A DNA stretch of 49,634 bases. It comes from an uncultured Fidelibacterota bacterium. Lineage in GTDB: Bacteria; Fidelibacterota; Marinisomatia; Marinisomatales; UBA1611. Shown in pieces: positions 7,429 to 44,468 of this stretch. The stretch's first letter is position 1; each line of letters starts with the position of its first letter. The stretch is taken from assembly GCA_902611135.1 (NCBI GenBank), contig CACLYL010000004.1:1-49634 (forward strand), in the 5' to 3' direction. The notes beneath the pieces were generated by a model. The model was not told the DNA's origin. It ran no database searches and saw nothing but the letters and a program-made list of their open reading frames with translations. The position numbers and the translations under genes are program-made.

Positions 7429-8549
7429 AAATTTTAATGTATTTAATTTCAAATAAATTTTATCTACCTCTCATTTTTTTAATTCTTTTGAATAACTTAT
7501 TTGCGTTTGAGTACAAAGTTAATATAATTCAAAGCAAAATAGTTTATAAAGAAAAGGGTATTTATGCCTGCTTTCCAAATATTTTTACAATCAAAGATAC
7601 TATTATAATTGGTTTTAGTACTCGAATAACATCCTCCCATTATGATAAAGAAGGTGGAGGAAAACGGTACATATCAACGGATAATGGCTCTACATGGTAT
7701 GAAACCAAACAAAATCATATTTATCCAGGTTATAAAAATTTAGAGGGTAACTATACAATAACCGTTCCCAAAAACTGGAGAAAAATTAATAAAGAAGATT
7801 TGCAAAAAAAAAAGAGTGAATCAATTACCATTAAAGTATCAAATGGTTTCTTTTGGGAATCTATAGGTATATATCAAAAAACAATAAATTCCAAAGGCCT
7901 TCAAATCTCTTCAAAAACCATCCAGTTGCCTAAACATTCACTATTGATGGGAACAAATCTATCATCCTATCATAGAAGAGATGATGGAGCAAGACTGATA
8001 GGTCTTTTTGGTAAACTAAGTAATCAACAAAAAGAGAATCAAATTTTTATTTTACAATCTTTCAACGACGGCAAAAAATGGACATTCATTAAACCTTATA
8101 GTGATCCTGGCAAAATTGGTAATATCGGCTTGGGAGAGACAGCATTAATTGAGACTGAAAAAAATGTAATTATTGGAATATCGAGAGGGTCAGATGGATA
8201 TTTGTATAGTTCTCATTCAAAAAATTTCGGATCTAATTGGAGCAATCCAATGAAAATGAATATATGGGGGTATCCTGCAAATCTAATTAAGTTAAATAAA
8301 AAGCTTTTGGTTTGTACTTACGGGTATAGAAAAAGTCCAATTGGAATTAGAGCTTTAATTTTAGATTCTGAAACATTAGAACCTAAGTCCAAAGAGTTCA
8401 TTTTGCGAGATGATGGTAAAGGAAATCCATATGATACTGGATATCCTATGACAATAAATTTAAAAGAAAACACTTTTTTAACTTGCTATTACTTTACATC
8501 TGCGGATAACATTACCCATATTGCAACGACAAAATGGGAAATTATTTAA
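7425..8549 (+). CDS. BNR/Asp-box beta-propeller, sialidase-like glycoside hydrolase
   Basis: Asp-boxes STDNGSTW, SFNDGKKW and SKNFGSNW; ACFP, GET, GYP and DTGYP motifs; signal peptide; TTGA overlap with the upstream gene. Confidence 0.8.
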   Translation: MKILMYLISNKFYLPLIFLILLNNLFAFEYKVNIIQSKIVYKEKGIYACFPNIFTIKDTIIIGFSTRITSSHYDKEGGGKRYISTDNGSTWYETKQNHIYPGYKNLEGNYTITVPKNWRKINKEDLQKKKSESITIKVSNGFFWESIGIYQKTINSKGLQISSKTIQLPKHSLLMGTNLSSYHRRDDGARLIGLFGKLSNQQKENQIFILQSFNDGKKWTFIKPYSDPGKIGNIGLGETALIETEKNVIIGISRGSDGYLYSSHSKNFGSNWSNPMKMNIWGYPANLIKLNKKLLVCTYGYRKSPIGIRALILDSETLEPKSKEFILRDDGKGNPYDTGYPMTINLKENTFLTCYYFTSADNITHIATTKWEII

Positions 8550-8550
8550 C

Positions 8551-9351
8551 ATGGAAATACAATTAATTGGAAAAATATTTACGAATCCCCTGGTCTTTAT
8601 TTTCTCAATTATCATTTTCTTAAGCTTTAAAGCGTCACTTAATGTAAAAATTAAATTCCCTATTTTGATTTTTATCTATCTTTTTTCAATCCCCTTAACC
8701 TCAAACACCCTACTAAACATTTGGTCAAAAGTTGATACAATTAAGAAAAATGAGAAATATTTCTCAGCAATCGTTCTTGCTGGAGGATTGGATTATAATT
8801 GGCATTTTAGGCAAGAAATCGAAAATCCATATAAAATAAATTTTGATAACTTTACAAAATTTAAAAATTCTGAAGAGCGAATATTTGCAGGAATTGGGGT
8901 TGTAAAAAAAGGTATTGCGAATAATTTACTCCATTCAAACTGGGTTCCAAAGCTTAAGCATAAAGGGGAGATTCATAATTATAATGTAAGTTTAAAATTA
9001 AAAAGGTTTGCAGTTGAAAAAGGTCTGCCTAAAAGAAAATTTAAGATTTACGGAAATAAAGTTAAGAGAACTTTGGATGAAGCATCAGAATTAAAAAAGT
9101 ATCTAGGGAAAAATTCAGCAAATAGGTTACTATTAATCACAAGCCAAAGCCATATGAGAAGAGCATTAGCTATTTTCCAAAAGAGAGGTATTTATGTCGA
9201 TTGTATGTCAGTCGAAAAGGTAGACACTATAATGAATTCTATTCAAAGAACTAAGAACTATATACCAAGCGTTGAGGGATTATTTGGTATGAGAACCTTT
9301 TTGTATGAATTTATTGGATATATTGGTTATTGGCTGTTAGACGATATATAA
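8551..9351 (+). CDS. YdcF/ElyC/SanA (DUF218) family protein
   Basis: N-terminal TM helices, AIVLAGG, RTLDEA, LLITSQSHMRRA and LYEFIG motifs. ATG8551 preferred over TTG8521. Confidence 0.85.
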   Translation: MEIQLIGKIFTNPLVFIFSIIIFLSFKASLNVKIKFPILIFIYLFSIPLTSNTLLNIWSKVDTIKKNEKYFSAIVLAGGLDYNWHFRQEIENPYKINFDNFTKFKNSEERIFAGIGVVKKGIANNLLHSNWVPKLKHKGEIHNYNVSLKLKRFAVEKGLPKRKFKIYGNKVKRTLDEASELKKYLGKNSANRLLLITSQSHMRRALAIFQKRGIYVDCMSVEKVDTIMNSIQRTKNYIPSVEGLFGMRTFLYEFIGYIGYWLLDDI

Positions 9352-32480: not shown

Positions 32481-33302
32481 ATGTTTACATTATTGAAAGG
32501 GCGCAACTTGATTAATTTTTTAGGTATACCCTTATGGATTTTCCTAATTTTAAAAGGCGATCTTTTCTATGCTGCTTTTATATTGGTCGCATCGATACTG
32601 GGTTTAGGAGAATTTTACAATATAACAACCAAAAAAGGTGCTAAACCCTTAAGGTGGGTTGGTATGGTAACTACCGTTTTTATCATTGATTATTTTTACA
32701 TACAACCAGACCTTAGGGCCGAACAGTATCTTGGTTTTTTAATTTTTTTAGTTCTTATGACTCTCATATGGGAATTGTTTTCTAATCACAAAGAGTCTAC
32801 ATTTAATATACTTGCAACCTTGGGAGGTATTCTTATTATCCCTTTGCAATTAGGCACTTCAATATATATTAGACAATTTGATTCTCTAATGGATACAAAC
32901 CTAACCTTGGTATTAGTTATATCTATCTGGGGATGTGATTCCGCAGCTTTCATCTTTGGCTCCATATTTGGTGAAAGAAAGATTTTTCCAAGAGTAAGTC
33001 CAAATAAAAGCTGGGTTGGCTCATTATCAGGTCTTATAACATCAATCCTGATTTTTCAATTATCCTATTCAAAGGGCTGGCTTGGCGAAATTTTTACATT
33101 GAATGATGCTATAATATTTGGCTTAATATCTGGTTTCTTTGGTCAACTAGGGGATTTTTCTGAATCGCTATTTAAACGGGATGTGAATATTAAAGATAGT
33201 GGTAAAATCTTACAAGGTCATGGAGGAATATTGGATAGATTTGATTCCTTGTTATTCGCATCACCATTTACCTATCTTTACATTCTATTTTTTATCAAAT
33301 AA
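32481..33302 (+). CDS. cdsA: Phosphatidate cytidylyltransferase
   Basis: SPNKSWVG, GDFSESLFKR and KDSG...GHGGILDRFDS motifs; AGGAG SD. Confidence 0.95.
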   Translation: MFTLLKGRNLINFLGIPLWIFLILKGDLFYAAFILVASILGLGEFYNITTKKGAKPLRWVGMVTTVFIIDYFYIQPDLRAEQYLGFLIFLVLMTLIWELFSNHKESTFNILATLGGILIIPLQLGTSIYIRQFDSLMDTNLTLVLVISIWGCDSAAFIFGSIFGERKIFPRVSPNKSWVGSLSGLITSILIFQLSYSKGWLGEIFTLNDAIIFGLISGFFGQLGDFSESLFKRDVNIKDSGKILQGHGGILDRFDSLLFASPFTYLYILFFIK

Positions 33303-33322: not shown

Positions 33323-35137
33323 ATGAAATTAAATTCAATATTAGCAACAGATTGTGGCAGTACTACAACAAAGGCAATTTTGATTCAAAGAATTGATGGT
33401 GAGTTTAGGCTAACCCATAGAGGTGAGGCTCCCACTACTGTTGAAGCACCCTTTGAAGATGTGACCCGAGGAGTTTTAAATGCTGTGATGGAGATCGAAG
33501 AATTGGCCTCAAAAAAAATCCTTAATGGGAACAAAATTTTATCGCCACAAAAAGATAATGAAGGAGTTGATATCTTTATATCAACAAGCTCCGCTGGAGG
33601 AGGGCTTCAAATGATGGTTGCGGGAGTAGTTAAATCTATGTCAGGCGAGAGTGCAGAAAGAGCAGCATTAGGAGCAGGTTCAATTGTTATGGATGTGATG
33701 GCCTCAAATGATGGTAGGCTTGGCCATGAAAAAATTAAAAGAATACGAGATTTAAGACCTGATATGATTTTATTATCTGGAGGGATAGATGGAGGGACGA
33801 TTTCTCATGTAGTTGAACTTGCAGAAGTTCTCTCTGCTGCAAATCCGCAACCAAGACTGGGTCAAAGTTATAAATTACCAGTTATTTATGCCGGAAATAA
33901 AAAAGCTAGAAATCAAATTAAAAAGGCTTTAGGGGACAAAGTAGATTTAGATATTGTAGATAATATCCGCCCTGTTTTAGAGCAGGAAAACCTCGAACCA
34001 TCGCGTGATAAAATCCATGATCTTTTTATGGAACATGTTATGCAACAAGCGCCTGGATATAAAAAGTTAATGACATGGACGGATGCTCCAATCATGCCAA
34101 CTCCAGGTGCGGTTGGTTTTTTAATTGAAATGATAGCAGAAAAGGAAAATATATCTGTGGTAGGTGTTGATATTGGCGGAGCAACAACAGATATTTTTTC
34201 AGTATTTCAAAAAAAGTTTAATCGAACAGTAAGTGCAAACTTGGGCATGAGTTATTCTATTTGCAATGTATTAGCTGAAGCGGGTTTGGATAATGTTTTA
34301 AAATGGGTGCCATTTGATATTGACCGACAAGAGTTAACAAATCGTATTGGAAACAAAATGATTCGTCCCACAACGGTTCCTCAATCTCTAGAGGAACTTT
34401 TTATCGAACAAGCTATTGCAAGAGAAGCACTTCGTTTATCATTTAAACAACATAAAGAATTTGCAGTTGGATTAAAAGGCGTTCAAAAGAAAAGAACTAT
34501 ATCAGATGCATTTGATCAATCTAGCTCGGGTGAATCTCTGGTCAATATGATGGATTTAGATCTTCTTGTTGGATCTGGAGGAGTTTTAAGTCATGCTCCG
34601 AGAAGAGAGCAGTCAGCAAAAATGTTGATAGATTCGTTTATGCCAGAAGGCATAACTCAGCTTGCAGTTGACTCAATATTTATGATGCCACAATTAGGTG
34701 TTCTTGCTAATATTGATAAAAAAGATATAAGCGATGAGGCAAGAAATGCTGCTCTGGAGGTTTTTCATAAAGATTGTCTTATCAGGTTAGGCACTTGTAT
34801 TACACCAATTGGTAAAGTAAAAGACAATTCAATAGTATTAAAAGCGAGCATTATATTTCCAAATGGAGAAAAAGTACTGAAAGAGATTAAAAAAAATGAA
34901 TTAATCCGTATTGAGGCTAAATTTGAACCATTGGACGCTGAACTTACACCCCATAAAAGTATGGATATTGGAGCAGGAAAAGGTGAAACAATAAAAACTA
35001 AAATTTTCGGAGGGGTAGTTGGATTAATTTTTGATGGTAGAGAAAGGCCCATTACACTACCCTCAAATAAGGAAAAGAGATTATCTCTTCTAAAAGGTTG
35101 GTCTGATGCCCTCAATGAATATCCAAAAAAGAGTTAG
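33323..35137 (+). CDS. Glutamate mutase L (GlmL/MutL)-family ASKHA ATPase
   Basis: DCGSTTTK (phosphate 1), SSAGGGL, LSGGIDGG, YAGN, PTPGAV, DIGGATTD (phosphate 2) and GSGGVLSH motifs. Confidence 0.88.
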   Translation: MKLNSILATDCGSTTTKAILIQRIDGEFRLTHRGEAPTTVEAPFEDVTRGVLNAVMEIEELASKKILNGNKILSPQKDNEGVDIFISTSSAGGGLQMMVAGVVKSMSGESAERAALGAGSIVMDVMASNDGRLGHEKIKRIRDLRPDMILLSGGIDGGTISHVVELAEVLSAANPQPRLGQSYKLPVIYAGNKKARNQIKKALGDKVDLDIVDNIRPVLEQENLEPSRDKIHDLFMEHVMQQAPGYKKLMTWTDAPIMPTPGAVGFLIEMIAEKENISVVGVDIGGATTDIFSVFQKKFNRTVSANLGMSYSICNVLAEAGLDNVLKWVPFDIDRQELTNRIGNKMIRPTTVPQSLEELFIEQAIAREALRLSFKQHKEFAVGLKGVQKKRTISDAFDQSSSGESLVNMMDLDLLVGSGGVLSHAPRREQSAKMLIDSFMPEGITQLAVDSIFMMPQLGVLANIDKKDISDEARNAALEVFHKDCLIRLGTCITPIGKVKDNSIVLKASIIFPNGEKVLKEIKKNELIRIEAKFEPLDAELTPHKSMDIGAGKGETIKTKIFGGVVGLIFDGRERPITLPSNKEKRLSLLKGWSDALNEYPKKS

Positions 35138-35140
35138 ACT

Positions 35141-36265
35141 ATGGCACATTCATACACACCAGGATTGAAAGTTTTAAAATCATCCATAATTGATAAAAAC
35201 CGTAGATTACCAATAAAGGGCGAAGTAAGAAAAAAAGTTGGAGATAGTGTATCACCTGATGATATTGTAGCTAAAACAAATCTTCCAGGTAATGTTCAAA
35301 TAATCAAAGTGGCTAGTCAATTGAATATTGGTCCTGCTGATATTCTTGAAGCTTTAAAGGTGAGTGAGGGAGAGCAAATCAAAAAGGGTCAGCTATTAGC
35401 ACAAACTGGAGGTTTATTTGGATTATTTAAATCTGAAATATTTAGTCCAATTGATGGAACAATAGAATCTATTTCAGATGTAACAGGTCAAATTATAATG
35501 CGTGAAGCGCCCATTCCTGTGGAAATAGATGCCTATACTTCCGGAATTGTAAGGGATATAATTCCTGAAGAGGGCGTTATTATTGAAACAAAGGCAGCTT
35601 TTATCCAAGGTATTTTTGGAATTGGTGGCGAAGCTCGAGGGATTTTAGAAATTATTGTTCAAGATAGGAACGATGAAATTACACCCGAAATGCTAAACAG
35701 CTCTCAAAAAGGAAAAGTTATAGTAGGCGGAGGATTTATTGGTTTGGAAGCATTTAAAAAAGCAATTTCTTTAAATATATCAGGTATTGTAATAGGTGGT
35801 TTTAATTATTATGACCTCAAAGAAATTTTAGGTTACAACTTAGGCGTTGCAATAACTGGATCAGAAGATATTAATACGTCACTTATAGTTACTGAGGGAT
35901 ATGGACATATAAAAATGAGTAGGGGAACATTTAGTCTTTTAAAAGAAAATGAAAATAATTTTTGTTCTATTAATGGAGCAACTCAAATTAGAGCAGGTGT
36001 CATAAGACCAGAAATTGTCATACCAGTAAAAGAAGATAGCTTAAAATCAGTCAAAGAAAGTAAAATTGGTAAAGGTATAGTGATAGGTAGTTTGGTTCGA
36101 GTGATAAGAGCGCCTTTTTTTGGATTAATGGGTAAAGTGACTGAATTACCATCCAAGCTACAAAAAATGGAATCTGAAACTTTGGTTCGAGTTGCTAAAA
36201 TTAATGTTGACGATCAAGATATAATAATTCCAAGATCTAATTTAGAAATGGTAGAAACAGATTGA
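35141..36265 (+). CDS. Hypothetical protein with barrel-sandwich-hybrid (RnfC-N/NqrA-N-like) repeats and C-terminal KOW motif
   Basis: KKVGDSVSPDDIVA, VSEGEQIKKGQLLA, SPIDGTIESI; IGSLVRVIRAPFFGLMGKV (KOW); 3-nt gap after the GlmL-like gene. Confidence 0.75.
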   Translation: MAHSYTPGLKVLKSSIIDKNRRLPIKGEVRKKVGDSVSPDDIVAKTNLPGNVQIIKVASQLNIGPADILEALKVSEGEQIKKGQLLAQTGGLFGLFKSEIFSPIDGTIESISDVTGQIIMREAPIPVEIDAYTSGIVRDIIPEEGVIIETKAAFIQGIFGIGGEARGILEIIVQDRNDEITPEMLNSSQKGKVIVGGGFIGLEAFKKAISLNISGIVIGGFNYYDLKEILGYNLGVAITGSEDINTSLIVTEGYGHIKMSRGTFSLLKENENNFCSINGATQIRAGVIRPEIVIPVKEDSLKSVKESKIGKGIVIGSLVRVIRAPFFGLMGKVTELPSKLQKMESETLVRVAKINVDDQDIIIPRSNLEMVETD

Positions 36266-36316
36266 TAGATATTTTCCTTTCCTGAGGTTTTAATTTTAAT
36301 TAAGATTTAGTGTAGA

Positions 36317-36634
36317 ATGAAAAAAGATAATTCACAATCACATATAATAGAGCATAGTGATAATGTATTTATTGATCGTATTTCAAATAAAATATATGAT
36401 TCAGGCCTTATCACACCAGCTATTTTCTTCCTTGAGATGACAAAGCCTATCTCTCTTTTGGGAAGTCACTTCCTTATATTTTTGGGACCCGTGGTAAATG
36501 CATTTATCCAGTCAGATGATTATTATCGAGCAGCCCAAGTTTTTGAAGATTCTAAAAATGTAGAGTTATTGATTCAGAAACTAGAAACATTAGAATTAAA
36601 AAATCATAAGAAGAGAGAAGCAATTGAAAGATAA
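36317..36634 (+). CDS. Small hypothetical protein of the GlmL/DUF6754 cluster
   Basis: 105 aa; GLITPAIFFLEMTKPISLLGS amphipathic/hydrophobic core; 11-nt overlap with the next gene. Confidence 0.8.
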   Translation: MKKDNSQSHIIEHSDNVFIDRISNKIYDSGLITPAIFFLEMTKPISLLGSHFLIFLGPVVNAFIQSDDYYRAAQVFEDSKNVELLIQKLETLELKNHKKREAIER

Positions 36635-37496
36635 GAATTTTATTGTCTCATCAATAATTATTTTTTTTGCTTTCACCTATCTACAGCTATTTAAGCCAGA
36701 TCTTTACATTGATGAAAGGGGCTTGCTCCTTTTTTTAATCTTGCTTTTTGGTGGAATACTACAATACTCTACTAGACATGCAATTAGAGGTGGTGATATT
36801 TTTTTAAGGACGATACCGGGAGTAAAAGCAGTTGAAGAGGCAGTAGGAAGATCTACTGAAATGGGTAAACCTGTCCTTTATGTTCCTGGAATTCAAGACA
36901 TGGATCAAGTAGAAACTGTTGCTGGAGTAGTTATTCTTGGACATGTATCAAAAATGACCGCCAGATATGAAACACCCCTGAATGTTCCTGTTGCAAGATC
37001 AATTGTATTAAAAGCCGCACAAGAGGCCTGCAAAGAATCATATTTAATTGAAGGAAAATCAGATATATATAATGAAAATATGGTTCATTATCTCACTGAT
37101 GATCAATTTGCCTATGCCGCAGGTGTAAATGGTATCATGAATAGAGAGAAACCAGCTGCATGTTTGTACATGGGTAAATTTTATGCTGAATCACTTTTAC
37201 TTGCAGAAACAGGAAATTCAATCGGAGCTATTCAAATTGCAGGTACTGCTTCACAATCTCAAATCCCCTTTTTTGTTACAGCCTGTGACTATACTCTTAT
37301 TGGAGAAGAATTTTTTGCTGCCAGTGCATATTTATCACAAAAGCCCGAACTATTAGGAATTGTAAAGGGTCAAGACTATATCAAACTTTGCATAATCATT
37401 ATGATAGTTGGCGGTGTGCTCCTAAGATTTTTGTATGATATAGATCTAATCGATTTTAATGTTCTAGATTTTTTGACTGTTTCAAACTTGAAATAA
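36624..37496 (+). CDS. DUF6754 domain membrane protein
   Basis: IPGVKAVEEAVGRSTEMGKPV, QFAYAAG, AESLLLAETG, QIAGT and CDYTLIGEEFFAASAYLS motifs; N- and C-terminal TMs. Confidence 0.82.
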   Translation: MKDKNFIVSSIIIFFAFTYLQLFKPDLYIDERGLLLFLILLFGGILQYSTRHAIRGGDIFLRTIPGVKAVEEAVGRSTEMGKPVLYVPGIQDMDQVETVAGVVILGHVSKMTARYETPLNVPVARSIVLKAAQEACKESYLIEGKSDIYNENMVHYLTDDQFAYAAGVNGIMNREKPAACLYMGKFYAESLLLAETGNSIGAIQIAGTASQSQIPFFVTACDYTLIGEEFFAASAYLSQKPELLGIVKGQDYIKLCIIIMIVGGVLLRFLYDIDLIDFNVLDFLTVSNLK

Positions 37497-37497
37497 T

Positions 37498-38316
37498 ATG
37501 ATGCTAAAAAGACAAGTTCCCATTTTCATCGTGATGTTTTTTGGATTCCTAACATTATTTGGATGGTTTATTGATCAAAATCAAGTTAAAGATTTCGTTG
37601 ATATTCATGGCTTACAGTGGTACAGTATAATTTCTACATTTGCCATCTTCCTTGGAATTATTACACTAATTAAGCTTCAACTAATAAAAATACTAAAAAA
37701 ACAAAAAGGTTGGCAGTATTCAGTCGTCGCTATTTTGGGCGTTCTATTTTCGTTTACAGCTGGGTTTATTTACAAAGGAAATCCCGATGTAGAATGGGGA
37801 GGACATGTTATAGAAAAAGGAACTCTGTTCAAATGGATTTTCGAGTTCATGTTTACCCCTTTATCAGCTACTATGTTTGCATTACTTGCATTCTTTGTCG
37901 CTTCTGCTTCATATAGAGCATTTAGAATTAGAAATTTTGAAGCAACATTATTACTTATCTCTGGTATGATTATTATGATAGGTAGGGTACCAATTGGAAG
38001 TTCAATTTCAAGCTGGTTTGTCCTTTATCTATTGGTGTTTGTTATTTCGATAATCATAAATAGCATATTTAAAAATAAAACCTATACCATGATTTCTTTT
38101 TCATCAGGATTAATCATCGTTAGTTTGCTGGGTTTTTACATGGGCTGGCCTTTAGATCGTCCAGGTATTTTCTACCTTCCTACATTACAAGAATGGATTT
38201 ATAAATATCCAAATGTTGCAGGTGCCAGGTCAATATCTATTGGTATAGGTCTAGGAATATTTGCAACGTCAATTCGATATATATTAGGATTAGAAAAATC
38301 CTACATTGGAGAATAG
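37498..38316 (+). CDS. Polytopic membrane protein (GlmL/DUF6754 cluster)
   Basis: About 8 hydrophobic segments; PLSATMFALLAFFVASASYRAFRIR, GRVPIG and PNVAGARSISIG motifs. Confidence 0.82.
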   Translation: MMLKRQVPIFIVMFFGFLTLFGWFIDQNQVKDFVDIHGLQWYSIISTFAIFLGIITLIKLQLIKILKKQKGWQYSVVAILGVLFSFTAGFIYKGNPDVEWGGHVIEKGTLFKWIFEFMFTPLSATMFALLAFFVASASYRAFRIRNFEATLLLISGMIIMIGRVPIGSSISSWFVLYLLVFVISIIINSIFKNKTYTMISFSSGLIIVSLLGFYMGWPLDRPGIFYLPTLQEWIYKYPNVAGARSISIGIGLGIFATSIRYILGLEKSYIGE

Positions 38317-38318
38317 GC

Positions 38319-39161
38319 ATGAAGTCTGTTTTAAATTTAATACTAAAACTTAGTAGCATAGATAGAAGATGGATTTTTTTAATTATAGGCTTATCTGTTT
38401 TCCTTCCTCTATTTTTTCCTTTAGGACTTCCAATAAGAGCAACGGATACCACCCAAATTGTATATGATGCCTTTGATTCTTTAGATCCAAATTCGAAAGT
38501 ACTCCTATCTTGTGAGTATGGTCCCAGCACAAAGCCTGAAATACACCCTATGGTTATTGCAGTATTGCATCAACTTTTTAGAAATAATCACAAAGTTTAT
38601 GTGAGCTGCTTGTGGCCTGACGGTCAATTTATGGCAGATGAGGCTCTAAGAAAAGTGGCACCGTTGTATGATAAGACATATGGAGAAGATTATGTAATTT
38701 TAGGTTATAAACCTGGAAATGAAGCAGTTATAAAAGGGATGGTTAGGGATCTAAGGGCAATATTTAGCACTGATGTTAAAGGTAAGAAGGTTGAGGATAT
38801 CCCAATGATGAATAAAATTTTTAAGTTCGAAGACTTTGATTTTTTATTTTCTGCCTCTGCAGGATTTCCTGGATCAATAGAGTGGATGCAATATGCTACA
38901 GATAACACCGATGTAAAAATGAGTACTGGAACTACTTCAATCATGGTAAATGATATAATGCCCTTTGTTGTATCTAAACAAATACAAGGGATACTGGCGG
39001 GTATGCCAGGTGCTGCTGAGTATGAGACCTTAGTTGGTGAACCTGGTATAGGGACTAGTGGTATGGATGCACAGTCTCTTGCTCATTTAGTTATAGTATT
39101 ATTTATTATTTTTGGAAACATTGGCTATTTTATTGAAAGAAATAAAAGAAAAAGATACTAG
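38319..39161 (+). CDS. Membrane-anchored alpha/beta protein (GlmL/DUF6754 cluster)
   Basis: N-terminal TM (DRRWIFL), EYGPST.PE, YGEDYVILGY, GMPGAAEYE and MDAQS.AH followed by a C-terminal TM. Confidence 0.82.
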   Translation: MKSVLNLILKLSSIDRRWIFLIIGLSVFLPLFFPLGLPIRATDTTQIVYDAFDSLDPNSKVLLSCEYGPSTKPEIHPMVIAVLHQLFRNNHKVYVSCLWPDGQFMADEALRKVAPLYDKTYGEDYVILGYKPGNEAVIKGMVRDLRAIFSTDVKGKKVEDIPMMNKIFKFEDFDFLFSASAGFPGSIEWMQYATDNTDVKMSTGTTSIMVNDIMPFVVSKQIQGILAGMPGAAEYETLVGEPGIGTSGMDAQSLAHLVIVLFIIFGNIGYFIERNKRKRY

Positions 39162-39172
39162 GGATTAAATTA

Positions 39173-40000
39173 ATGATTTTTAATGATATTTTTGGAGCAT
39201 GGGTTGCTGTTTTTTTTACTTTAGCAATATTTTCTTTTCTTTATAAAGACAATCCTTTTTATAAGATAGCCGAACATGCTTACATTGGTATTTCAGCAGG
39301 ATATTGGTTATCAATTGGTTTCTGGACGATAATACAGCCAAATTTATTAGGCAGATTGTGGCCTTCAAAAGAATATTCAGAAGAAAGTTTTTGGTATTCT
39401 ATTTATGATTTTCTTAGCTCCATAATTCCTTCAATATTTCCAAACGGGGGTATAGATAAAGGTCATAATATGGATCTTACCTATTTAATTCCGCTTGTTC
39501 TAGGTATTATGATGATTTTAAGTATTTTTAAACAATTTAATTGGATGGCTCGTTGGGGAATTGCATATACTGTTGCAATTGCTGCAGGATTGAGAGCATA
39601 TGGCTACTTAAATTCGTATATTTTGGGCCAAATAAAAGGTACTATTGTGCCATTGGCAAATACAGAGTACCCTATTTTCCATATTTCAGAACCCTCTTTA
39701 TTAAATAATTTGTTGATATTACTCGGTACGGTCACTGGACTTTTATACTTCTTCTTTTCTAGAGAACAATCCGGTTCATTTGGTAAAATAACCCGGTTAG
39801 GAATTTACTTCTTAATGATTTCTTTTGGTGCATCCTTCGGCTTTGCTGTTATGGGTAGAATATCACTTTTAATTGGAAGATTTGTTTCGCTTATCGACTA
39901 TTCAAGCTCTCAATATCATCATGCTACATTGTGGGTTTTTTTTCTAATGATTATATTATTGATTTATTCTGCAATTAACGATCGATCTACATCCAGTTAA
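39173..40000 (+). CDS. Polytopic membrane protein (GlmL/DUF6754 cluster)
   Basis: TLAIFSFLYKDNPFYKIAEHAYIGISAG, LLYFFFS and MISFGASFGFAVMGR motifs; about 7 TM segments. Confidence 0.82.
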   Translation: MIFNDIFGAWVAVFFTLAIFSFLYKDNPFYKIAEHAYIGISAGYWLSIGFWTIIQPNLLGRLWPSKEYSEESFWYSIYDFLSSIIPSIFPNGGIDKGHNMDLTYLIPLVLGIMMILSIFKQFNWMARWGIAYTVAIAAGLRAYGYLNSYILGQIKGTIVPLANTEYPIFHISEPSLLNNLLILLGTVTGLLYFFFSREQSGSFGKITRLGIYFLMISFGASFGFAVMGRISLLIGRFVSLIDYSSSQYHHATLWVFFLMIILLIYSAINDRSTSS

Positions 40001-40019: not shown

Positions 40020-40505
40020 TTGACAACTTTTAATTTTAAGGTCAATTTTGTATTTATTTTTTTTATTTATCTCTCTTGCACTAATATCAGTTCAAGAAAT
40101 GTTATATCAAAAAAAAATGATTTCATCTGTTTTTCAGATTCAGGTATTTTTCAAAAATCGGCAATAAAAATTTTGGAGGCATTTCAGTATCAGGTTAAAA
40201 ATTTTGAAGTTCTTCCGAACAAAAATATTATTGAAACTAATTGGAAAATTCACGATAACAGATCTGATTTTAAATTCCCTAGTTCATATGGAAAGGCAAG
40301 AAGTAGGTTGATTCTCACATCTATTAAAAATATTAAAACAGATACTTATAATAATTTAAATATTATCGAATCCTATTTTAAAATAGAATTTGAGAGGTAT
40401 AATAAAGACGGATGGTATAGTGTACCTGTTTCAGATGAATTAGCTAAAGTGAAAGTTGCCTTTATTCGAGAACTAAAAAAAGAAATAGAAAAACAGAATA
40501 AATGA
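40020..40505 (+). CDS. Hypothetical lipoprotein (weak BamC/NlpB-like)
   Basis: TTG start, lipobox-like YLS-C, IIETNW motif; ATGA overlap with the sirtuin gene. Confidence 0.55.
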   Translation: MTTFNFKVNFVFIFFIYLSCTNISSRNVISKKNDFICFSDSGIFQKSAIKILEAFQYQVKNFEVLPNKNIIETNWKIHDNRSDFKFPSSYGKARSRLILTSIKNIKTDTYNNLNIIESYFKIEFERYNKDGWYSVPVSDELAKVKVAFIRELKKEIEKQNK

Positions 40506-41209
40506 ATTTAAATAAAATAGAAACTGAAAAATTTGATTCCATAATATTTTTTACTGGGGCTGGAATGTCTAAAGAATCAAATATTGATACTTATCGAGGA
40601 GATGGTGGAATCTGGAATACTTATAATTGGAAAGAATTTGCATGCCAAAAAGCCTTTATAAAAAATCCTTTAAAAGTTCAAAAATTCCACGAAGTAAGGC
40701 GTAAAGAAATTTTTGATAAAAAGCCTCATTATGGGTATAAGATTATTTCTAGCCTACAAAAAAAACACAATAACATATATATATTGACACAAAATATTGA
40801 TGGTCTTCACAAAAAATGTAGACAATTAAATGTTATAGAATTACATGGATCTCTCTGGCATTTACGTTGTGAAAAAACCAGAAATATTTTCGAAGACCGC
40901 AAAAGATGGAAATATGAAAGGAGAAAGTGTCGATGTTCAAAATATTTGAGGCCAGATATTATTTGGTTTGAAGATAACTTAAAGAAAAACACCTTATCAA
41001 GTGCAATTAAACTTGCAGAAAAATGTAATTTATTTATTTCTGTTGGTACAAGCGGGCTGGTTTATCCATCAGCATCAATACCATCAATAGCAAAAAAAGC
41101 GGGTGCTTTTTGTATTGAAATTAACCCAGAGGAAACGGAACTATCTTACCTATATGACCATAACTTAAGACAGGTAGCTACTTCTGGATTAAAATCATTA
41201 TTTATTTAA
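40502..41209 (+). CDS. cobB: Sir2-family NAD-dependent protein deacylase
   Basis: TGAGMSKES, TQNIDGLH, ELHGS, RPDIIWF, VGTSGLVYP and EINP motifs. Confidence 0.92.
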   Translation: MNLNKIETEKFDSIIFFTGAGMSKESNIDTYRGDGGIWNTYNWKEFACQKAFIKNPLKVQKFHEVRRKEIFDKKPHYGYKIISSLQKKHNNIYILTQNIDGLHKKCRQLNVIELHGSLWHLRCEKTRNIFEDRKRWKYERRKCRCSKYLRPDIIWFEDNLKKNTLSSAIKLAEKCNLFISVGTSGLVYPSASIPSIAKKAGAFCIEINPEETELSYLYDHNLRQVATSGLKSLFI

Positions 41210-41587
41210 TTAGGCTAATACTTGCTCAATATCGTCGCGAATTAGAACTAAAATAGCAGATTGCGATACAATAAGGTATTTCCTTTTTTCTAGCTCTATT
41301 TCAATGCTTGCTTTCGATAAAAATAAAACATAATCACCAACCTCAGCTTGAGTTGGTATATACTTTACATTGCTCTTTTTTTCTTTCCAAGGTTCATCAA
41401 ATGTAGAATCAGGGGATCCAAGGGGAATTCCAGGTCCAACCTCAACAACCACTCCACCGCGTACATCTTGTTTTTCTATAACGCTTGGAGGCAAATATAA
41501 CCCAGATGGAGACTTCTTTTCTCCGGTGTCAGGCCTAATTAAGATCCTGTCACCAACTACAATTATATTCTTCCCGTTATTTCTCAT
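41210..41587 (-). CDS. GroES/Cpn10-family co-chaperonin paralog with insertion
   Basis: VGDRILIRP, SPSGLYLP, GVVVEVGPG and VGDYVLF; extra loop PLGSPDSTFDEPWKEKKSNVKYIP. ATG41587 preferred because TTG41602 lies in the terminator. Confidence 0.85.
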   Translation of the reverse strand: MRNNGKNIIVVGDRILIRPDTGEKKSPSGLYLPPSVIEKQDVRGGVVVEVGPGIPLGSPDSTFDEPWKEKKSNVKYIPTQAEVGDYVLFLSKASIEIELEKRKYLIVSQSAILVLIRDDIEQVLA

Positions 41588-41592
41588 GCTAG

Positions 41593-41628
41593 AAAAAAGC
41601 AATAAGCCCTGAATTAACAGGGCTTATT
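41593..41628 (-). terminator. Rho-independent terminator
   Basis: Minus strand AATAAGCCCTG-TTAATT-CAGGGCTTATT-GC-TTTTTT: perfect 11-bp stem followed by a U6 tract. Confidence 0.85.
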
Positions 41629-41688
41629 AACACTGCACCGCCGGTTGAAAGGAGGGTCTAGGAGGGTAACTAGCAAATGCAGCATAAA
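41593..41688 (-). ncRNA. Candidate small RNA: long G-U-rich hairpin with two CCCUCCU (anti-SD) loop motifs plus terminator
   Basis: Minus strand UGCUGCAUUUGCUAGUU-[ACCCUCCUAGACCCUCCUUUC]-AACCGGCGGUGCAGUG. The pairing uses five G-U wobbles that exist only on this strand. GC-rich island in an AT-rich genome. Confidence 0.55.
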
Positions 41689-41691
41689 AAT

Positions 41692-42258
41692 TTATTTAGT
41701 ATCTAATTCCTTATCCACTGCGGTTGGGACTTCCTTCTTTGGTTTGGAACCCCAGTAATTTACATTAGAATTCAATAAAAAATAAACATTATCATTGGTT
41801 CTGTAAACATCACTAGAATTATTTGCTCTTACATAGTTATGTTGATAATCTTGTCCTGAATTTCCAAATACATAGTGAACTAACTCTTTTTCTGAGTCAT
41901 CAAATAATTTTAAATGCTTGCCTAAAGAGTCATCTACGCCAAATTTTTCCCATTTAGACTCTTTATTTGTCACTTGAATCTCTTTTTCAACGACAATCAC
42001 TTTATCAAAAAACCTATCAAGCTGGTTTTCTTTGACTACAAGACTATCAGCCTGAACAATCGACCATGTAGAATCATTTTTGATTAATTCTAGTACTTTA
42101 TCTTTTTCTGAGATTTGAATTTTTGATATTAGATCAATATTCCCATCAAAAATTTTACCTGGTTTTATGCTATGTTCGCTTTGCAACCTTTGATTAATAA
42201 AAAATAAAATCAATATAACCAGTAATGCACCAAGTCCTATTTTTATGTTATTAGTCAT
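41692..42258 (-). CDS. DUF4340 domain protein
   Basis: N-terminal TM, WEKFGVD and FGN...NYVR...VYRT motifs; overlaps the gldG-like stop, the usual position for this family. Confidence 0.8.
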   Translation of the reverse strand: MTNNIKIGLGALLVILILFFINQRLQSEHSIKPGKIFDGNIDLISKIQISEKDKVLELIKNDSTWSIVQADSLVVKENQLDRFFDKVIVVEKEIQVTNKESKWEKFGVDDSLGKHLKLFDDSEKELVHYVFGNSGQDYQHNYVRANNSSDVYRTNDNVYFLLNSNVNYWGSKPKKEVPTAVDKELDTK

Positions 42259-43753
42259 ATATTTGCCTCAATATTTCTGCGTTTTGTTTTTGACCTCTCA
42301 ATCTCAGGAAGCCAAAGCCTACTATTAAAATAGATGGAAGCAACATATTTGCAAATTTCCAATTCCTTTTAGTCGAGTCATCCATCTCTTCAAGCGGCCT
42401 ACTTGTAATTTCTCTTGATCTCAAAGCAATTAATTCTTTGTCTCCGGCTAAATAATCAACAGCATTCATCACAAAAACTAAATTATCTTGAATAGACATT
42501 CCACCATCATCAGCAAAGAACTTTGAATCACTTACCAGTATAATTTCAGCACCAGTTGATAATTTAGATAGCGCTGATAATATTTTACCTTTTTGGCCTA
42601 ATATATTCAAAAAAGGATTTTGCTGAGGATCAGGACTTAGCATAAAATTACCTTCCATGATACCGCTATTATTGGATGAAGAAAAAAGAGATAAATTGTT
42701 TATTACCAAATCGTTTGATGTAGTATCAAGTTCAATTTCACTTGGAAAAAAGGTTAAAACTTGTTCTAAATCAGATACGAGAATCTCATCATTATTAAAG
42801 TTTTGAACAACCGGAAAGAAAGGATATTCCATTGGCCTATTCATAAGAAAAATTCCTCTTCTTTCCTGAACTTGTACACTACCACACTTTTTATCTAAAA
42901 CTAAATTTTTCTTAACAGTTAAACCATAATTCTGCAGTAGGGTAAAAATATCAGAATCGATTGGATTTGCTTGTTGTGTTTGTATATCTGTTGTAAGTCC
43001 ACTCTGCGTTATGAAAACTTTCTTCCCAAGATTTATGAAGGTTTCTAAATTAGTTTTAACTTCAGGTTCAAGTGAATCAGAAGCTGCGGTTAAAAGTAAT
43101 ACATCAATTTCAGGGGATATAGCGTTTTTTAAATCTAAAGTGGTAAATGAATAATGCTGATTTAACTGAGCCGACAGATTTTCGGTTTTTATTGGATTCT
43201 CTTTATCTAATTGGGCAATCCCTATAGTTTTTTTATCAATATCTATTAAGGACTTTATTTTAGTACTGATCATATATTCTAGCCCAGCAGTAGTTTGAAT
43301 AACTGGAATTACTTCCTTTTTATTTTCATAAAGTAAAACCATCCCTAGATAAACCTTTTTAATTTCAACTTTGTCATTTTCAATAACCTGCATTTGAACT
43401 GGTTGTATACCATCTTTTCTAGCCTGTTCCTCTAAATCTGTATCAGATTCAGGATTATGAAAGAAAAACCTAACTTCATCGGACCATGCGCCATATTCCT
43501 CAAGGATATCTTGTAAAAATCGTCTAGTGTTTCCTAATTCATTTGGAAGATTATCAGAGAAGTATACTTTCATCGTCAGAAGGTCATCTAAACTTTCAAC
43601 AATCTTTCTACTAGATGAAGATAATGAATACATACTATTGTCTGTTAAATCAAACCTTTTAAAAATATCTCTAGCAATTAGATTGAGGAGAACTAGACCA
43701 ACGACTAGTCCAACAGCGTAGAGGATAAATGAATTTTTATTTTTTGTTAGCAT
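42251..43753 (-). CDS. gldG: GldG-family ABC transporter auxiliary/substrate-binding protein
   Basis: RFDLTDNSMYSLS, VYFS..LP, LEYMIS, NLVFVMNAVDYL and LIALRSR motifs; ATG43753 with GGAG upstream. Confidence 0.88.
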   Translation of the reverse strand: MLTKNKNSFILYAVGLVVGLVLLNLIARDIFKRFDLTDNSMYSLSSSSRKIVESLDDLLTMKVYFSDNLPNELGNTRRFLQDILEEYGAWSDEVRFFFHNPESDTDLEEQARKDGIQPVQMQVIENDKVEIKKVYLGMVLLYENKKEVIPVIQTTAGLEYMISTKIKSLIDIDKKTIGIAQLDKENPIKTENLSAQLNQHYSFTTLDLKNAISPEIDVLLLTAASDSLEPEVKTNLETFINLGKKVFITQSGLTTDIQTQQANPIDSDIFTLLQNYGLTVKKNLVLDKKCGSVQVQERRGIFLMNRPMEYPFFPVVQNFNNDEILVSDLEQVLTFFPSEIELDTTSNDLVINNLSLFSSSNNSGIMEGNFMLSPDPQQNPFLNILGQKGKILSALSKLSTGAEIILVSDSKFFADDGGMSIQDNLVFVMNAVDYLAGDKELIALRSREITSRPLEEMDDSTKRNWKFANMLLPSILIVGFGFLRLRGQKQNAEILRQIYD

Positions 43754-43754
43754 A

Positions 43755-44468
43755 TCAACTCCATTTCCTAGATTCAAGAACACGAGTGGTCATAAATAGA
43801 AAAAATCCAATTATTGATCCAAAATAAATCAGATTCCGAGTATCAATTACACCTCTAGATATATTGCTGAGGTGAAACTCGGTACTCATGTACTGGACAA
43901 TACCTGCTAAAGATGCAGGAACAAAGTACAGTAACTTATCCATTAAAAAGAAAACAAGCACTATAGCTATTCCAACGATGAATGCAATCACCTGATTTTC
44001 TGTTAAACTGCTGGCAAAAACACCAATAGATGTGTAGACTCCAGCAACTAAAGCTAATCCCAAGTAACCTGTGAACACGGCACCATGATCAATTGTAGTT
44101 CCGAACTTTATGAGGGTAAAATAATGAATCACTGTTGAGAAAAGGGATATAATTATCAGAGTTAAACCCGCTAAATATTTTCCCAATACGATGTCTCTTT
44201 CTTTTATGGGGAGAGTACTGATAATTTCAATTGTACCGATTCCTTTTTCCCTTGATATTAGACCCATGGAGACTGCAGGTATGAAAAAAAGGTACACCAT
44301 AGGAACAATTCCAAACAAAGCTCGCATGTCTGATTGGTTATATAAAAAGAAGGTATTTGTGAAGAAATAGCCATTCACTAATGCAAAAATAACTAAAAAT
44401 ATATATGCCATTGGACTTGAAAAAAAAGAGCTCAATTCTTTCTTATAAATTGCGCGAATATTATGCAT
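43755..44468 (-). CDS. gldF: GldF-like ABC-2 permease
   Basis: KKELSSFFSSPMAY, EKGIGTIE, VLGKY, SSLTENQVIA and RGVIDTR motifs. Confidence 0.9.
   Translation of the reverse strand: MHNIRAIYKKELSSFFSSPMAYIFLVIFALVNGYFFTNTFFLYNQSDMRALFGIVPMVYLFFIPAVSMGLISREKGIGTIEIISTLPIKERDIVLGKYLAGLTLIIISLFSTVIHYFTLIKFGTTIDHGAVFTGYLGLALVAGVYTSIGVFASSLTENQVIAFIVGIAIVLVFFLMDKLLYFVPASLAGIVQYMSTEFHLSNISRGVIDTRNLIYFGSIIGFFLFMTTRVLESRKWS

Follow-up and report, generated by a model that had tools for sequence, protein, structure and literature searches.

What does an ATPase of the MutL/GlmL family do in a row of membrane protein genes with no B12-dependent mutase beside it? This question is raised by positions 33323 to 40000 of a contig from an uncultured Fidelibacterota bacterium (GenBank assembly GCA_902611135.1, contig CACLYL010000004.1), which was analyzed at its full length of 49,634 nucleotides and is called "the window" here. 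The seven open reading frames (ORFs) in this region, designated g1 to g7, very probably specify a real and conserved ATPase-plus-membrane system that is unrelated to glutamate mutase. The unit is modular: the soluble pair g1-g2, together with the small protein g3, stands beside a membrane "quartet," g4 to g7. The source names of near-identical proteins pointed to Marinimicrobia/SAR406 (Neomarinimicrobiota/Fidelibacterota), and 151 genomes of this phylum, 95 of them of high quality, were compared. The genome of origin is a metagenome-assembled genome of 1.36 Mb with a completeness of 57.9%.

A first-pass annotation of the window had described seven co-oriented genes, and the ORF listing agrees with this description: all seven are located on the plus strand with gaps of 3, 51, −11, 1, 2, and 11 nucleotides between them. 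It had also assigned two proteins with a globular part between transmembrane (TM) segments and two polytopic membrane proteins. In a hydropathy scan, g1 and g2 had no TM segments, g3 had one hydrophobic stretch, g4 and g6 had hydrophobic segments on either side of a globular part, and g5 and g7 had about six to eight segments each, in line with this assignment. The genes are as follows (aa, amino acids).

g1: 33323..35137, plus strand, 604 aa; predicted cytoplasmic member of the MutL/GlmL family of ASKHA ATPases (aa 6 to 467), extended by about 135 aa that form a conserved domain at the C terminus
g2: 35141..36265, plus strand, 374 aa; putative soluble partner of g1; beta domains of the barrel-sandwich (biotinyl-carrier-like) type, an alpha/beta domain in the center, and a KOW domain at the C terminus
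g3: 36317..36634, plus strand, 105 aa; one hydrophobic hairpin region, which is conserved, and a helix at the C terminus
g4: 36624..37496, plus strand, 290 aa; DUF6754 protein with N-terminal TM helices, a six-stranded Rossmann-like domain (probably cytoplasmic), and a C-terminal TM helix
g5: 37498..38316, plus strand, 272 aa (about 210 aa in other lineages); polytopic membrane protein with a conserved Arg-rich loop
g6: 38319..39161, plus strand, 280 aa; Arg-Arg tail, TM helix, globular domain of about 200 aa, and a TM helix with an invariant His and Asn
g7: 39173..40000, plus strand, 275 aa (about 210 aa in other lineages); polytopic membrane protein
cdsA: 32481..33302, plus strand; upstream neighbor of g1, listed as context (PF01148, 179.6 bits)

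Occurrence and gene order within the phylum

The ATPase family PF13941 was found above its cutoff in 95 of the 151 genomes and DUF6754, the family of g4, in 92. Comparison of these two presence listings sorted the genomes into 91 with both families, 4 with the ATPase only (G104, G120, G133, and G142; 72 to 87% complete), 1 with DUF6754 only (G139; 66% complete), and 55 with neither. The presence of g1 thus equaled that of DUF6754 in 146 of 151 genomes, and the co-occurrence proposed by the first-pass annotation holds at the genome level within the phylum, to which this comparison was confined. Both families were present in 60 of the 95 high-quality genomes. The order cdsA-g1-g2-g3-g4-g5-g6-g7 was constant in 86 Marinimicrobia loci, to the limits of each contig, with cdsA ahead of g1 wherever a locus reached upstream and cdsA was detected, including the split locus L092. 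The cluster was kept in G071, which comprises a single contig of about 0.97 Mb. In G017, two parts of it, cdsA-g1-g2 and g3-g7, were separated by more than 1 Mb, and close relatives of G017 showed the same separation at the contig level. Three relatives kept the upstream genes through cdsA with no g1-g7 downstream: the run DHODH-RlpA-DAGK-CdsA was present in G059 and G150 and RlpA-CdsA in G146. This indicates that the seven genes have been gained or lost as a block. The order in the 86 loci and that of g4 to g7 in distant metagenome loci, as described below, show that the genes are not arranged in this way by mere chance.

The upstream flank consists of a diacylglycerol (DAG) kinase-like gene and cdsA, as was correctly noted at first and agrees with the Pfam matches. 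From this position in a lipid/envelope gene run, a housekeeping role had been suggested. Such a role is doubtful because 35 of the 95 high-quality genomes do not carry the cluster, including relatives that keep the DHODH-RlpA-DAGK-CdsA run, and because adjacency to cdsA was not seen among the neighbors of the distant loci. Membership in a defense system is disfavored as well: the anti-phage defense models of PADLOC-DB 2.0 gave 0 families for all seven proteins, and the constant place of the cluster next to cdsA in the core genome is a further argument against such a role.

The ATPase g1 and the B12-dependent mutases

The protein g1 matched the Pfam family MutL (PF13941) with 413.5 bits (cutoff, 27) from aa 6 to 467, with about 135 C-terminal residues beyond the model. 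The ASKHA motifs that had been read as intact were located at aa 10 to 17 (DCGSTTTK), aa 283 to 290 (DIGGATTD), and aa 417 to 420 (GSGG). The residues D10-K17, G281-D290, and S418-G420, which belong to the phosphate-1, phosphate-2, and adenosine motifs, were invariant in an alignment of 26 sequences that included other lineages, and g1 was 57 to 66% identical to metagenome homologues from those lineages. A short match to Hydantoinase_A (27.7 bits) was also found with Pfam. A single-sequence search of the PDB at an E value of ≤0.01 yielded no relative of g1.

The Pfam family and the nucleotide-binding motifs are shared by g1 with GlmL/MutL and with Or-4, but g1 remained below half of the equivalog cutoffs of both GlmL (NF040745, 219.5 versus 475 bits) and Or-4 (NF040744, 213.4 versus 600 bits), and it carries the additional C-terminal residues. 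It also failed the cutoff of TIGR01319, a subfamily of the GlmL family (157.5 versus 204.05 bits); close homologues are still labeled "TIGR01319 family" by JGI and appear in databases under the names "methylaspartate mutase" and "glutamate mutase L." These names, together with a split methylmalonyl-CoA mutase and two B12-radical-SAM proteins encoded in the genome of origin, would suit an explanation in which g1 is an ordinary accessory protein that services an adenosylcobalamin enzyme encoded elsewhere, for instance, methylmalonyl-CoA mutase, with the membrane genes as incidental neighbors. The B12-binding domains (PF02310) matched in that genome belong to these proteins and are encoded on the contigs C37 and C7; there was no PF02310 match on the contig of the window, so that the absence of a B12-related gene nearby, as stated at first, stands. 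For the GlmE subunit of glutamate mutase (PF06368), no match over the cutoff was obtained in the genome of origin, at its given completeness, and none in the 151 phylum genomes in a search without a positive control; in place of glmE, the DUF6754 membrane genes co-occur with g1. Methylmalonyl-CoA mutase was detected in 139 of the 151 genomes. Of the 55 without the cluster, 46 possess the mutase, and three incomplete genomes with g1 (70 to 84% complete) gave no match to it. Since the mutase is nearly universal and is present in most genomes without g1, and since GlmE was not found, g1 does not track a B12 mutase, as the first-pass annotation had argued; it tracks DUF6754. Hence, g1 is not a glutamate-mutase accessory gene, and the explanation as an ordinary B12 accessory is largely refuted and retains hardly any probability.

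A connection to B12 import was considered as well. The FecCD/BtuC permeases showed no anticorrelation with the cluster: among five cluster-bearing genomes, there was no match in G071, G024, and G063, 25 bits in G017, and 36 bits in G029; among five genomes without the cluster, four gave no match and G134 one of 33 bits. Apart from this comparison, these permeases were not found or gave weak matches only in all 10 genomes (G071, G024, G063, G017, G029, G055, G059, G134, G010, and G004). Methylmalonyl-CoA mutase was found in all of them except G004, and the 5 genomes checked for B12-binding proteins had such proteins. A corrinoid uptake route was not evident from the FecCD/BtuC searches in these 10 genomes. 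As a separate observation, a g1 homologue in G126 (contig C2, 442553-443987) was broken into at least four pieces, one of them with stop codons (two TGA and one TAA), and may be a pseudogene or an assembly problem.

The soluble partner g2 and the small protein g3

The link between g1 and g2 is most direct in two genomes, in which both are fused in frame to a single protein of 993 aa (G148) or 1,006 aa (G115), with g3 before and g4 after the fusion gene. G115 is also peculiar in another respect: at locus L177 (contig C14, minus strand), about 6.8 kb are located between g4 (7728-8924) and g5 (207-902), genes that abut in other loci.

The assignment of g2 as a barrel-sandwich/KOW protein was met by Pfam matches below the cutoff only (RnfC_N, 23.0 versus 25.6 bits; Biotin_lipoyl_2, 22.9 versus 29.8 bits), but the AlphaFold 2 (AF2) model supports it. 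This model had a predicted local distance difference test (pLDDT) score of 87.7 and matched, in Foldseek, NusG of T. maritima (2xhc, E value of 2.7e-6), the KOW5 domain of SPT5 (template modeling score over the target [TMt] of 0.84 to 0.85, root mean square deviation of about 2 Å), the biotinyl carrier protein BCCP (2d5d, TMt of 0.50), and RraA (1q5x, TMt of 0.47). A profile search of PDB sequences gave nothing significant for g2, and g2 was 44 to 52% identical to homologues outside Marinimicrobia. The weak matches to RnfC_N and, in NCBIfam, to PrdC and rnfC (TIGR01945, 14.6 versus 245.95 bits) are reminiscent of the barrel-sandwich subunits RnfC and NqrA. An assignment of g2 as an RnfC/NqrA-type subunit was nevertheless not supported: these matches are all below the cutoffs, the Foldseek matches listed were to NusG/SPT5 KOW, BCCP, and RraA with no RnfC or NqrA chain among them, and g4 to g7 matched no Rnf or Nqr membrane family.

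In 19 sequences of g3, the residues A35, P44, F55, P58, E77, and E90 were invariant. Like g5, g6, and g7, g3 has no Pfam family, and no NCBIfam match was obtained for these four proteins except a chance-level one of g5 to MAB_1171c (16.4 versus 100 bits).

The membrane quartet

The first protein of the quartet is g4, which matched DUF6754 (PF20539) with 368.3 bits (cutoff, 27) and was 43 to 58% identical over 74 representatives. The family has no described function, and its name was absent from the literature searched. Likewise, no relevant paper was found for the cluster, DUF6754/PF20539, PF13941/TIGR01319, GlmL with ASKHA, methylaspartate mutase in Marinimicrobia, or ASKHA with a KOW domain and transmembrane segments, in a search that left out subscription journals and supplements. 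In the AF2 model of g4 (pLDDT of 92, predicted template modeling score of 0.85), two helices at the N terminus are followed by a Rossmann-like alpha/beta domain of six strands, and a long helix forms the C terminus. Foldseek returned 0 PDB matches at an E value of ≤0.001, with 3wdl_C as the best hit (E value of 1.3e-3, TM score over the query of 0.29). Small Rossmann domains reached a TMt of 0.50 to 0.58 and at most 0.35 over the query, which is a generic fold without a functional lead.

Many g4 homologues are longer, 400 to 990 aa, and possess a signal peptide and an extracytoplasmic domain ahead of the TM segment that precedes DUF6754. P0126 and P0130 have an fn3 domain at this place, and P0139 and P0143 have a beta-propeller of the PQQ type. 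The extracytoplasmic location of these N-terminal domains and a basic stretch past the TM segment suggest that the DUF6754 domain of g4 is cytoplasmic. In contrast, the globular domain of g6 should be periplasmic because an invariant Arg-Arg pair precedes the first TM segment and a basic tail follows the second. On this reading of charges and fusions, the two proteins share the layout that had been assigned to them, but their globular parts would face opposite sides of the membrane, and they were not detectable as paralogues. Paralogy within the quartet was tried and rejected: in hhalign comparisons of shallow, Marinimicrobia-only alignments, g4 versus g6 gave an E value of 0.054 over 40 columns, g5 versus g7 gave 0.34, and seven other pairs gave nothing.

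Conserved positions were evident in the other quartet proteins as well. In g5, the invariant residues included R140, S136, and G249 in an alignment of 82 sequences, and the Arg-rich loop was conserved. In g6, these were R16, E74, P77, Q221, G224, E236, H256, and N267 in 84 sequences, and the second TM segment bears His256 and Asn267. In g7, D26, N27, K31, and E34 at the first helix and R127, Q153, and R229 were invariant in 43 sequences. Profile searches of PDB sequences returned 0 relatives for g4, g5, and g7 and chance-level rows for g6. No characterized transporter family was found for g4 to g7 by sequence comparison with Pfam, NCBIfam, PADLOC, and the PDB. The first-pass annotation had named three outcomes that would speak against its proposal, namely, missing co-occurrence, tracking with B12 mutases, and a match to a known transporter; instead, the genes co-occur, g1 does not follow the mutases, and no transporter match was obtained.

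Modularity outside the phylum

In a library of 1.84 billion proteins, DUF6754 formed 2,047 clusters at 50% identity (E value of ≤1e-3). According to source names and Atlas clusters, hosts of g4 are Marinimicrobia/Fidelibacterota, Eisenbacteria, Latescibacteria, and Planctomycetota, while the Atlas clusters of g5 were all unnamed and occurred in Hydrothermota and Fidelibacterota. A single-protein scan of genome contigs yielded Marinimicrobia-type loci only, a few of them labeled Lentisphaeria by the submitters.

The gene order in other lineages was studied in 80 metagenome loci, which were searched with hidden Markov models (HMMs) built from the Marinimicrobia orthologues. In 58 of 62 testable cases, g4 was followed by g5-g6-g7 (52 found by script and 6 masked by overlapping ORF calls); of the remaining four g4 genes, three were followed by a second g4, and one, in L175, stood alone. 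Tandem arrays of two or three quartets were present in nine loci by script count, and more run off the contig ends. Only 18 of the 80 loci carried g1 or g2 beside the quartet. Since so few loci outside the phylum do so, the g1-g2 and quartet modules are often unlinked there. Where they were linked, g3 was placed before g1: g3-g1-g2 preceded the quartet in L097, L104, L150, L161, L164, and L167 and was located between two quartets in L102. The seven-gene unit described at first is therefore modular: the quartet can be located apart from g1-g2, as in G017 within the phylum, or be repeated two or three times.

Additional conserved partners did not emerge. When 227 neighbor ORFs of the metagenome loci, located no more than three genes away from a module gene, were clustered, no cluster extended over more than five loci. 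Pfam assigned 19 neighbors to unrelated functions, among them PTS enzyme I (EI)/HPr, PPDK, GT2 glycosyltransferase, galactokinase, a Wza-like exporter, radical SAM, PurF-like, and GcvP proteins.

Some of these loci had peculiar features. L144, L170, L131, and L139 contain three quartets each, which look like three old paralogue types in a constant order. The g4 proteins of tandem quartets have sizes of about 420, about 415, and 290 to 315 aa, and the third, short type matched the Marinimicrobia g6 and g7 HMMs best; Marinimicrobia appear to retain this short third type only. Inserts among g3, g1, and g2 were found in L150 (5043-6173 and 8129-8533), L102 (15844-17246), and L173 (5092-5835). They include genes for a protein similar to SIR2_2 and for a member of the "8xMP" family of octameric membrane proteins (26 bits, below the cutoff), as well as three ORFs without a family over the cutoff. 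In L101 (6687-9932), genes for HPr, PTS EI, and a bacterial-PGI/SIS protein are located directly upstream of a quartet, with no g1 or g2 in the locus, and ORFs similar to this set occur in L105 and L168.

Predicted contact between g1 and g4

A complex prediction was performed for g1, g3, and g4. With g1 as the partner, the score was 0.52 (0.48, 0.53, and 0.52 in the individual runs), while all three controls, including the one with g4 replaced, gave 0.00. The runs shared at least 53% of the contacts, with a partner pLDDT of at least 79. Of 80 solved complexes, 58 reached the mark used, as did 2 of 110 mismatched pairs. At scores of ≤0.60, however, only 7 of the 80 solved complexes reached it, and both passing mismatched pairs were in this range as well, so that the result for g1 on g4 is a weak pass. 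The prediction is not a recall of a solved complex because none of the chains has a sequence relative in the PDB. On the basis of this model, g4 is the likely docking site of g1.

Transcripts and flanking genes

In the seawater metatranscriptome X1, 16 short contigs were placed on the stretch. The 8 of these 16 matches that were listed had a likeness of at least 90% and covered cdsA, g1, the g1/g2 junction (35069-35349), g2, g3, g4, g5, and g7; contigs of this kind cannot prove a single transcript and may result from DNA carry-over. In the runs X2, X3, and X5, there were 7, 2, and 5 pieces on the stretch, respectively, and uncovered parts carry no meaning. Rfam and tRNA scans of the window gave nothing.

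Downstream of the cluster, a 161-aa ORF (40020-40505) with a hydrophobic N terminus and no Pfam family was shared with one related locus only (L011). It is followed by a Sir2-family gene (40502-41209), two genes downstream of g7, which may be a coincidence with the SIR2_2-like insert found elsewhere. A convergent block on the minus strand (41210-43783) was kept only in the closest relatives. It encodes three proteins: a Cpn10-like one of 130 aa that is extended at its N terminus, one with DUF4340, and a GldG-like ABC_transp_aux/DUF7088 protein.

Possible functions of the system

How the two modules may work together can be outlined from these data. The ATPase g1 bound to g2, with the help of the small hairpin protein g3, would form a cytoplasmic module, and the quartet would form an inner-membrane module with the polytopic proteins g5 and g7 and the globular domain of g6 exposed to the periplasm, supplemented in many lineages by fn3 or beta-propeller periplasmic domains at the N terminus of g4. 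The g1-g2 pair would dock on the Rossmann-like DUF6754 domain of g4 at the cytoplasmic side, and ATP binding and hydrolysis would power the membrane complex by driving conformational work in the quartet. This work could be transport of a solute through g5 and g7 or a force passed to the periplasmic parts, and one ATPase module may serve one to three quartets. The chance that docking of g1-g2 on g4 and ATP-driven work on the quartet are both real comes close to even but does not quite reach it.

Two groups of known systems may serve for comparison. PilM with PilN/O, GspL with GspM, and FtsA with FtsN are pairs of a cytoplasmic protein of the ASKHA fold docked on bitopic membrane proteins. The cluster resembles them by its putative cytoplasmic ASKHA protein and its membrane proteins with short cytoplasmic parts and periplasmic domains. 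It differs in that neither sequences nor families match, the presumed partner g4 contributes an entire Rossmann-like domain, the catalytic motifs of g1 are all kept, and pilus, secretion, or division genes are not alongside. ECF and ABC transporters use one ATPase module for several membrane modules, and MacB/FtsEX-type proteins are mechanotransmitters. One ATPase module with one to three membrane modules and the arrangement of g6, a presumed periplasmic domain between two TM segments, are similar to these systems, but g1 has the ASKHA fold instead of a P-loop, and no subunit belongs to an ABC, ECF, or FtsX family.

Several observations weigh against the reading as an ATP-driven membrane complex. 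The g1-g4 contact passed its mark only weakly. Neither g1 nor g2 was seen in 62 of the 80 loci outside the phylum. In eight of the loci, the membrane genes had 5 kb or more of sequence on either side, and just one of these eight contained g1 or g2. The cluster is dispensable, being missing from more than a third of the high-quality phylum genomes (35/95). Promoter-like sites (51 versus 48.2 expected) and terminator-like sites (6 versus 5.4 expected) were at chance level in a scan, so that the operon structure of g1 to g7 is suggested by the gene spacing only. "Transport or mechanotransmission" is deduced from the architecture, since the non-ATPase proteins are unlike any known transporter, motor, or enzyme. 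We know of no ASKHA ATPase that energizes a membrane transporter, and the ASKHA proteins with membrane partners, PilM, FtsA, and GspL, act mainly as scaffolds.

These points leave room for other explanations. The g1-g2 pair may be a maintenance chaperone that opens the Rossmann-like domain of g4 with ATP to load, exchange, or release a cofactor or ligand, and the quartet would then be a membrane enzyme or receptor instead of a pump. The MutL/GlmL family of g1 includes reactivases, the confidently modeled domain of g4 has many invariant acidic and polar residues that would suit a ligand site, up to three quartets occur per g1-g2 pair, and the ATPase is often encoded apart from the quartet. On the other hand, no cofactor motif was recognized in g4, no B12-binding or other cofactor family was matched in Pfam, Foldseek found the generic Rossmann fold only, and for the reactivase role of GlmL itself, the source was a figure legend; a chaperone is unlikely. 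A non-energizing organizer similar to PilM, FtsA, or GspL, in which g1 binds nucleotide and tethers an envelope-spanning assembly that does its work elsewhere, would agree with the binding of ASKHA proteins to cytoplasmic parts of bitopic membrane proteins as a known theme, with the invariant Arg-Arg pair in the presumed cytoplasmic tail of g6, with g3 as a small membrane hairpin, and with the fn3 and beta-propeller domains of g4 homologues, which are typical of protein-protein scaffolds. Invariance of all ASKHA catalytic motifs across lineages argues for retained catalysis, however, and no known pilus, secretion, or divisome family was found in or beside the cluster, which makes such a scaffold distinctly unlikely.

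As a further alternative, the quartet may be a facilitator and g1 may phosphorylate or ATP-activate the imported substrate, as is done by sugar kinases and by hydantoinase-type enzymes that share its fold. Many kinases have the ASKHA fold, and the Hydantoinase_A match of g1, the HPr, EI, and SIS isomerase genes of L101 with their homologous neighbors in L105 and L168, and a galactokinase-like gene in L158 would be compatible with this function. But sugar genes are not common across the loci, as the clustering of the neighbors revealed, and the high conservation of g1 next to variable periplasmic domains of g4 fits a common mechanical partner better than a variety of substrates, so that a transport-coupled kinase is improbable.

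In its most far-reaching form, the reading as an ATP-driven membrane complex would make this system the first membrane machine energized by an ASKHA-fold ATPase instead of a P-loop ATPase or an ion gradient. The g1-g2 "engine" would plug into interchangeable four-protein modules, the periplasmic domains of which would set what is moved or gripped, and it would be widespread in uncultured FCB-group and related phyla and kept in 1-Mb SAR406 genomes. This form is rather doubtful at present. Among the subunits of the system, only g1 belongs to a characterized family, and it fails the equivalog tests of that family.

The core proteins are conserved across lineages like central enzymes (57 to 66% identity for g1 and 43 to 58% for g4), and about 6.7 kb is devoted to the cluster in streamlined genomes with a size of about 1 Mb. 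If the ATPase indeed drives the membrane module, this would establish a new class of primary energy coupling for the inner membrane of bacteria. If g1-g2 acts as a maintenance chaperone, the concept of reactivases would be extended from soluble B12 enzymes to membrane proteins. With either reading, a common misannotation of g1 homologues as "methylaspartate mutase" or "glutamate mutase L" is corrected; such a label might falsely suggest that abundant bacteria of the ocean ferment glutamate.

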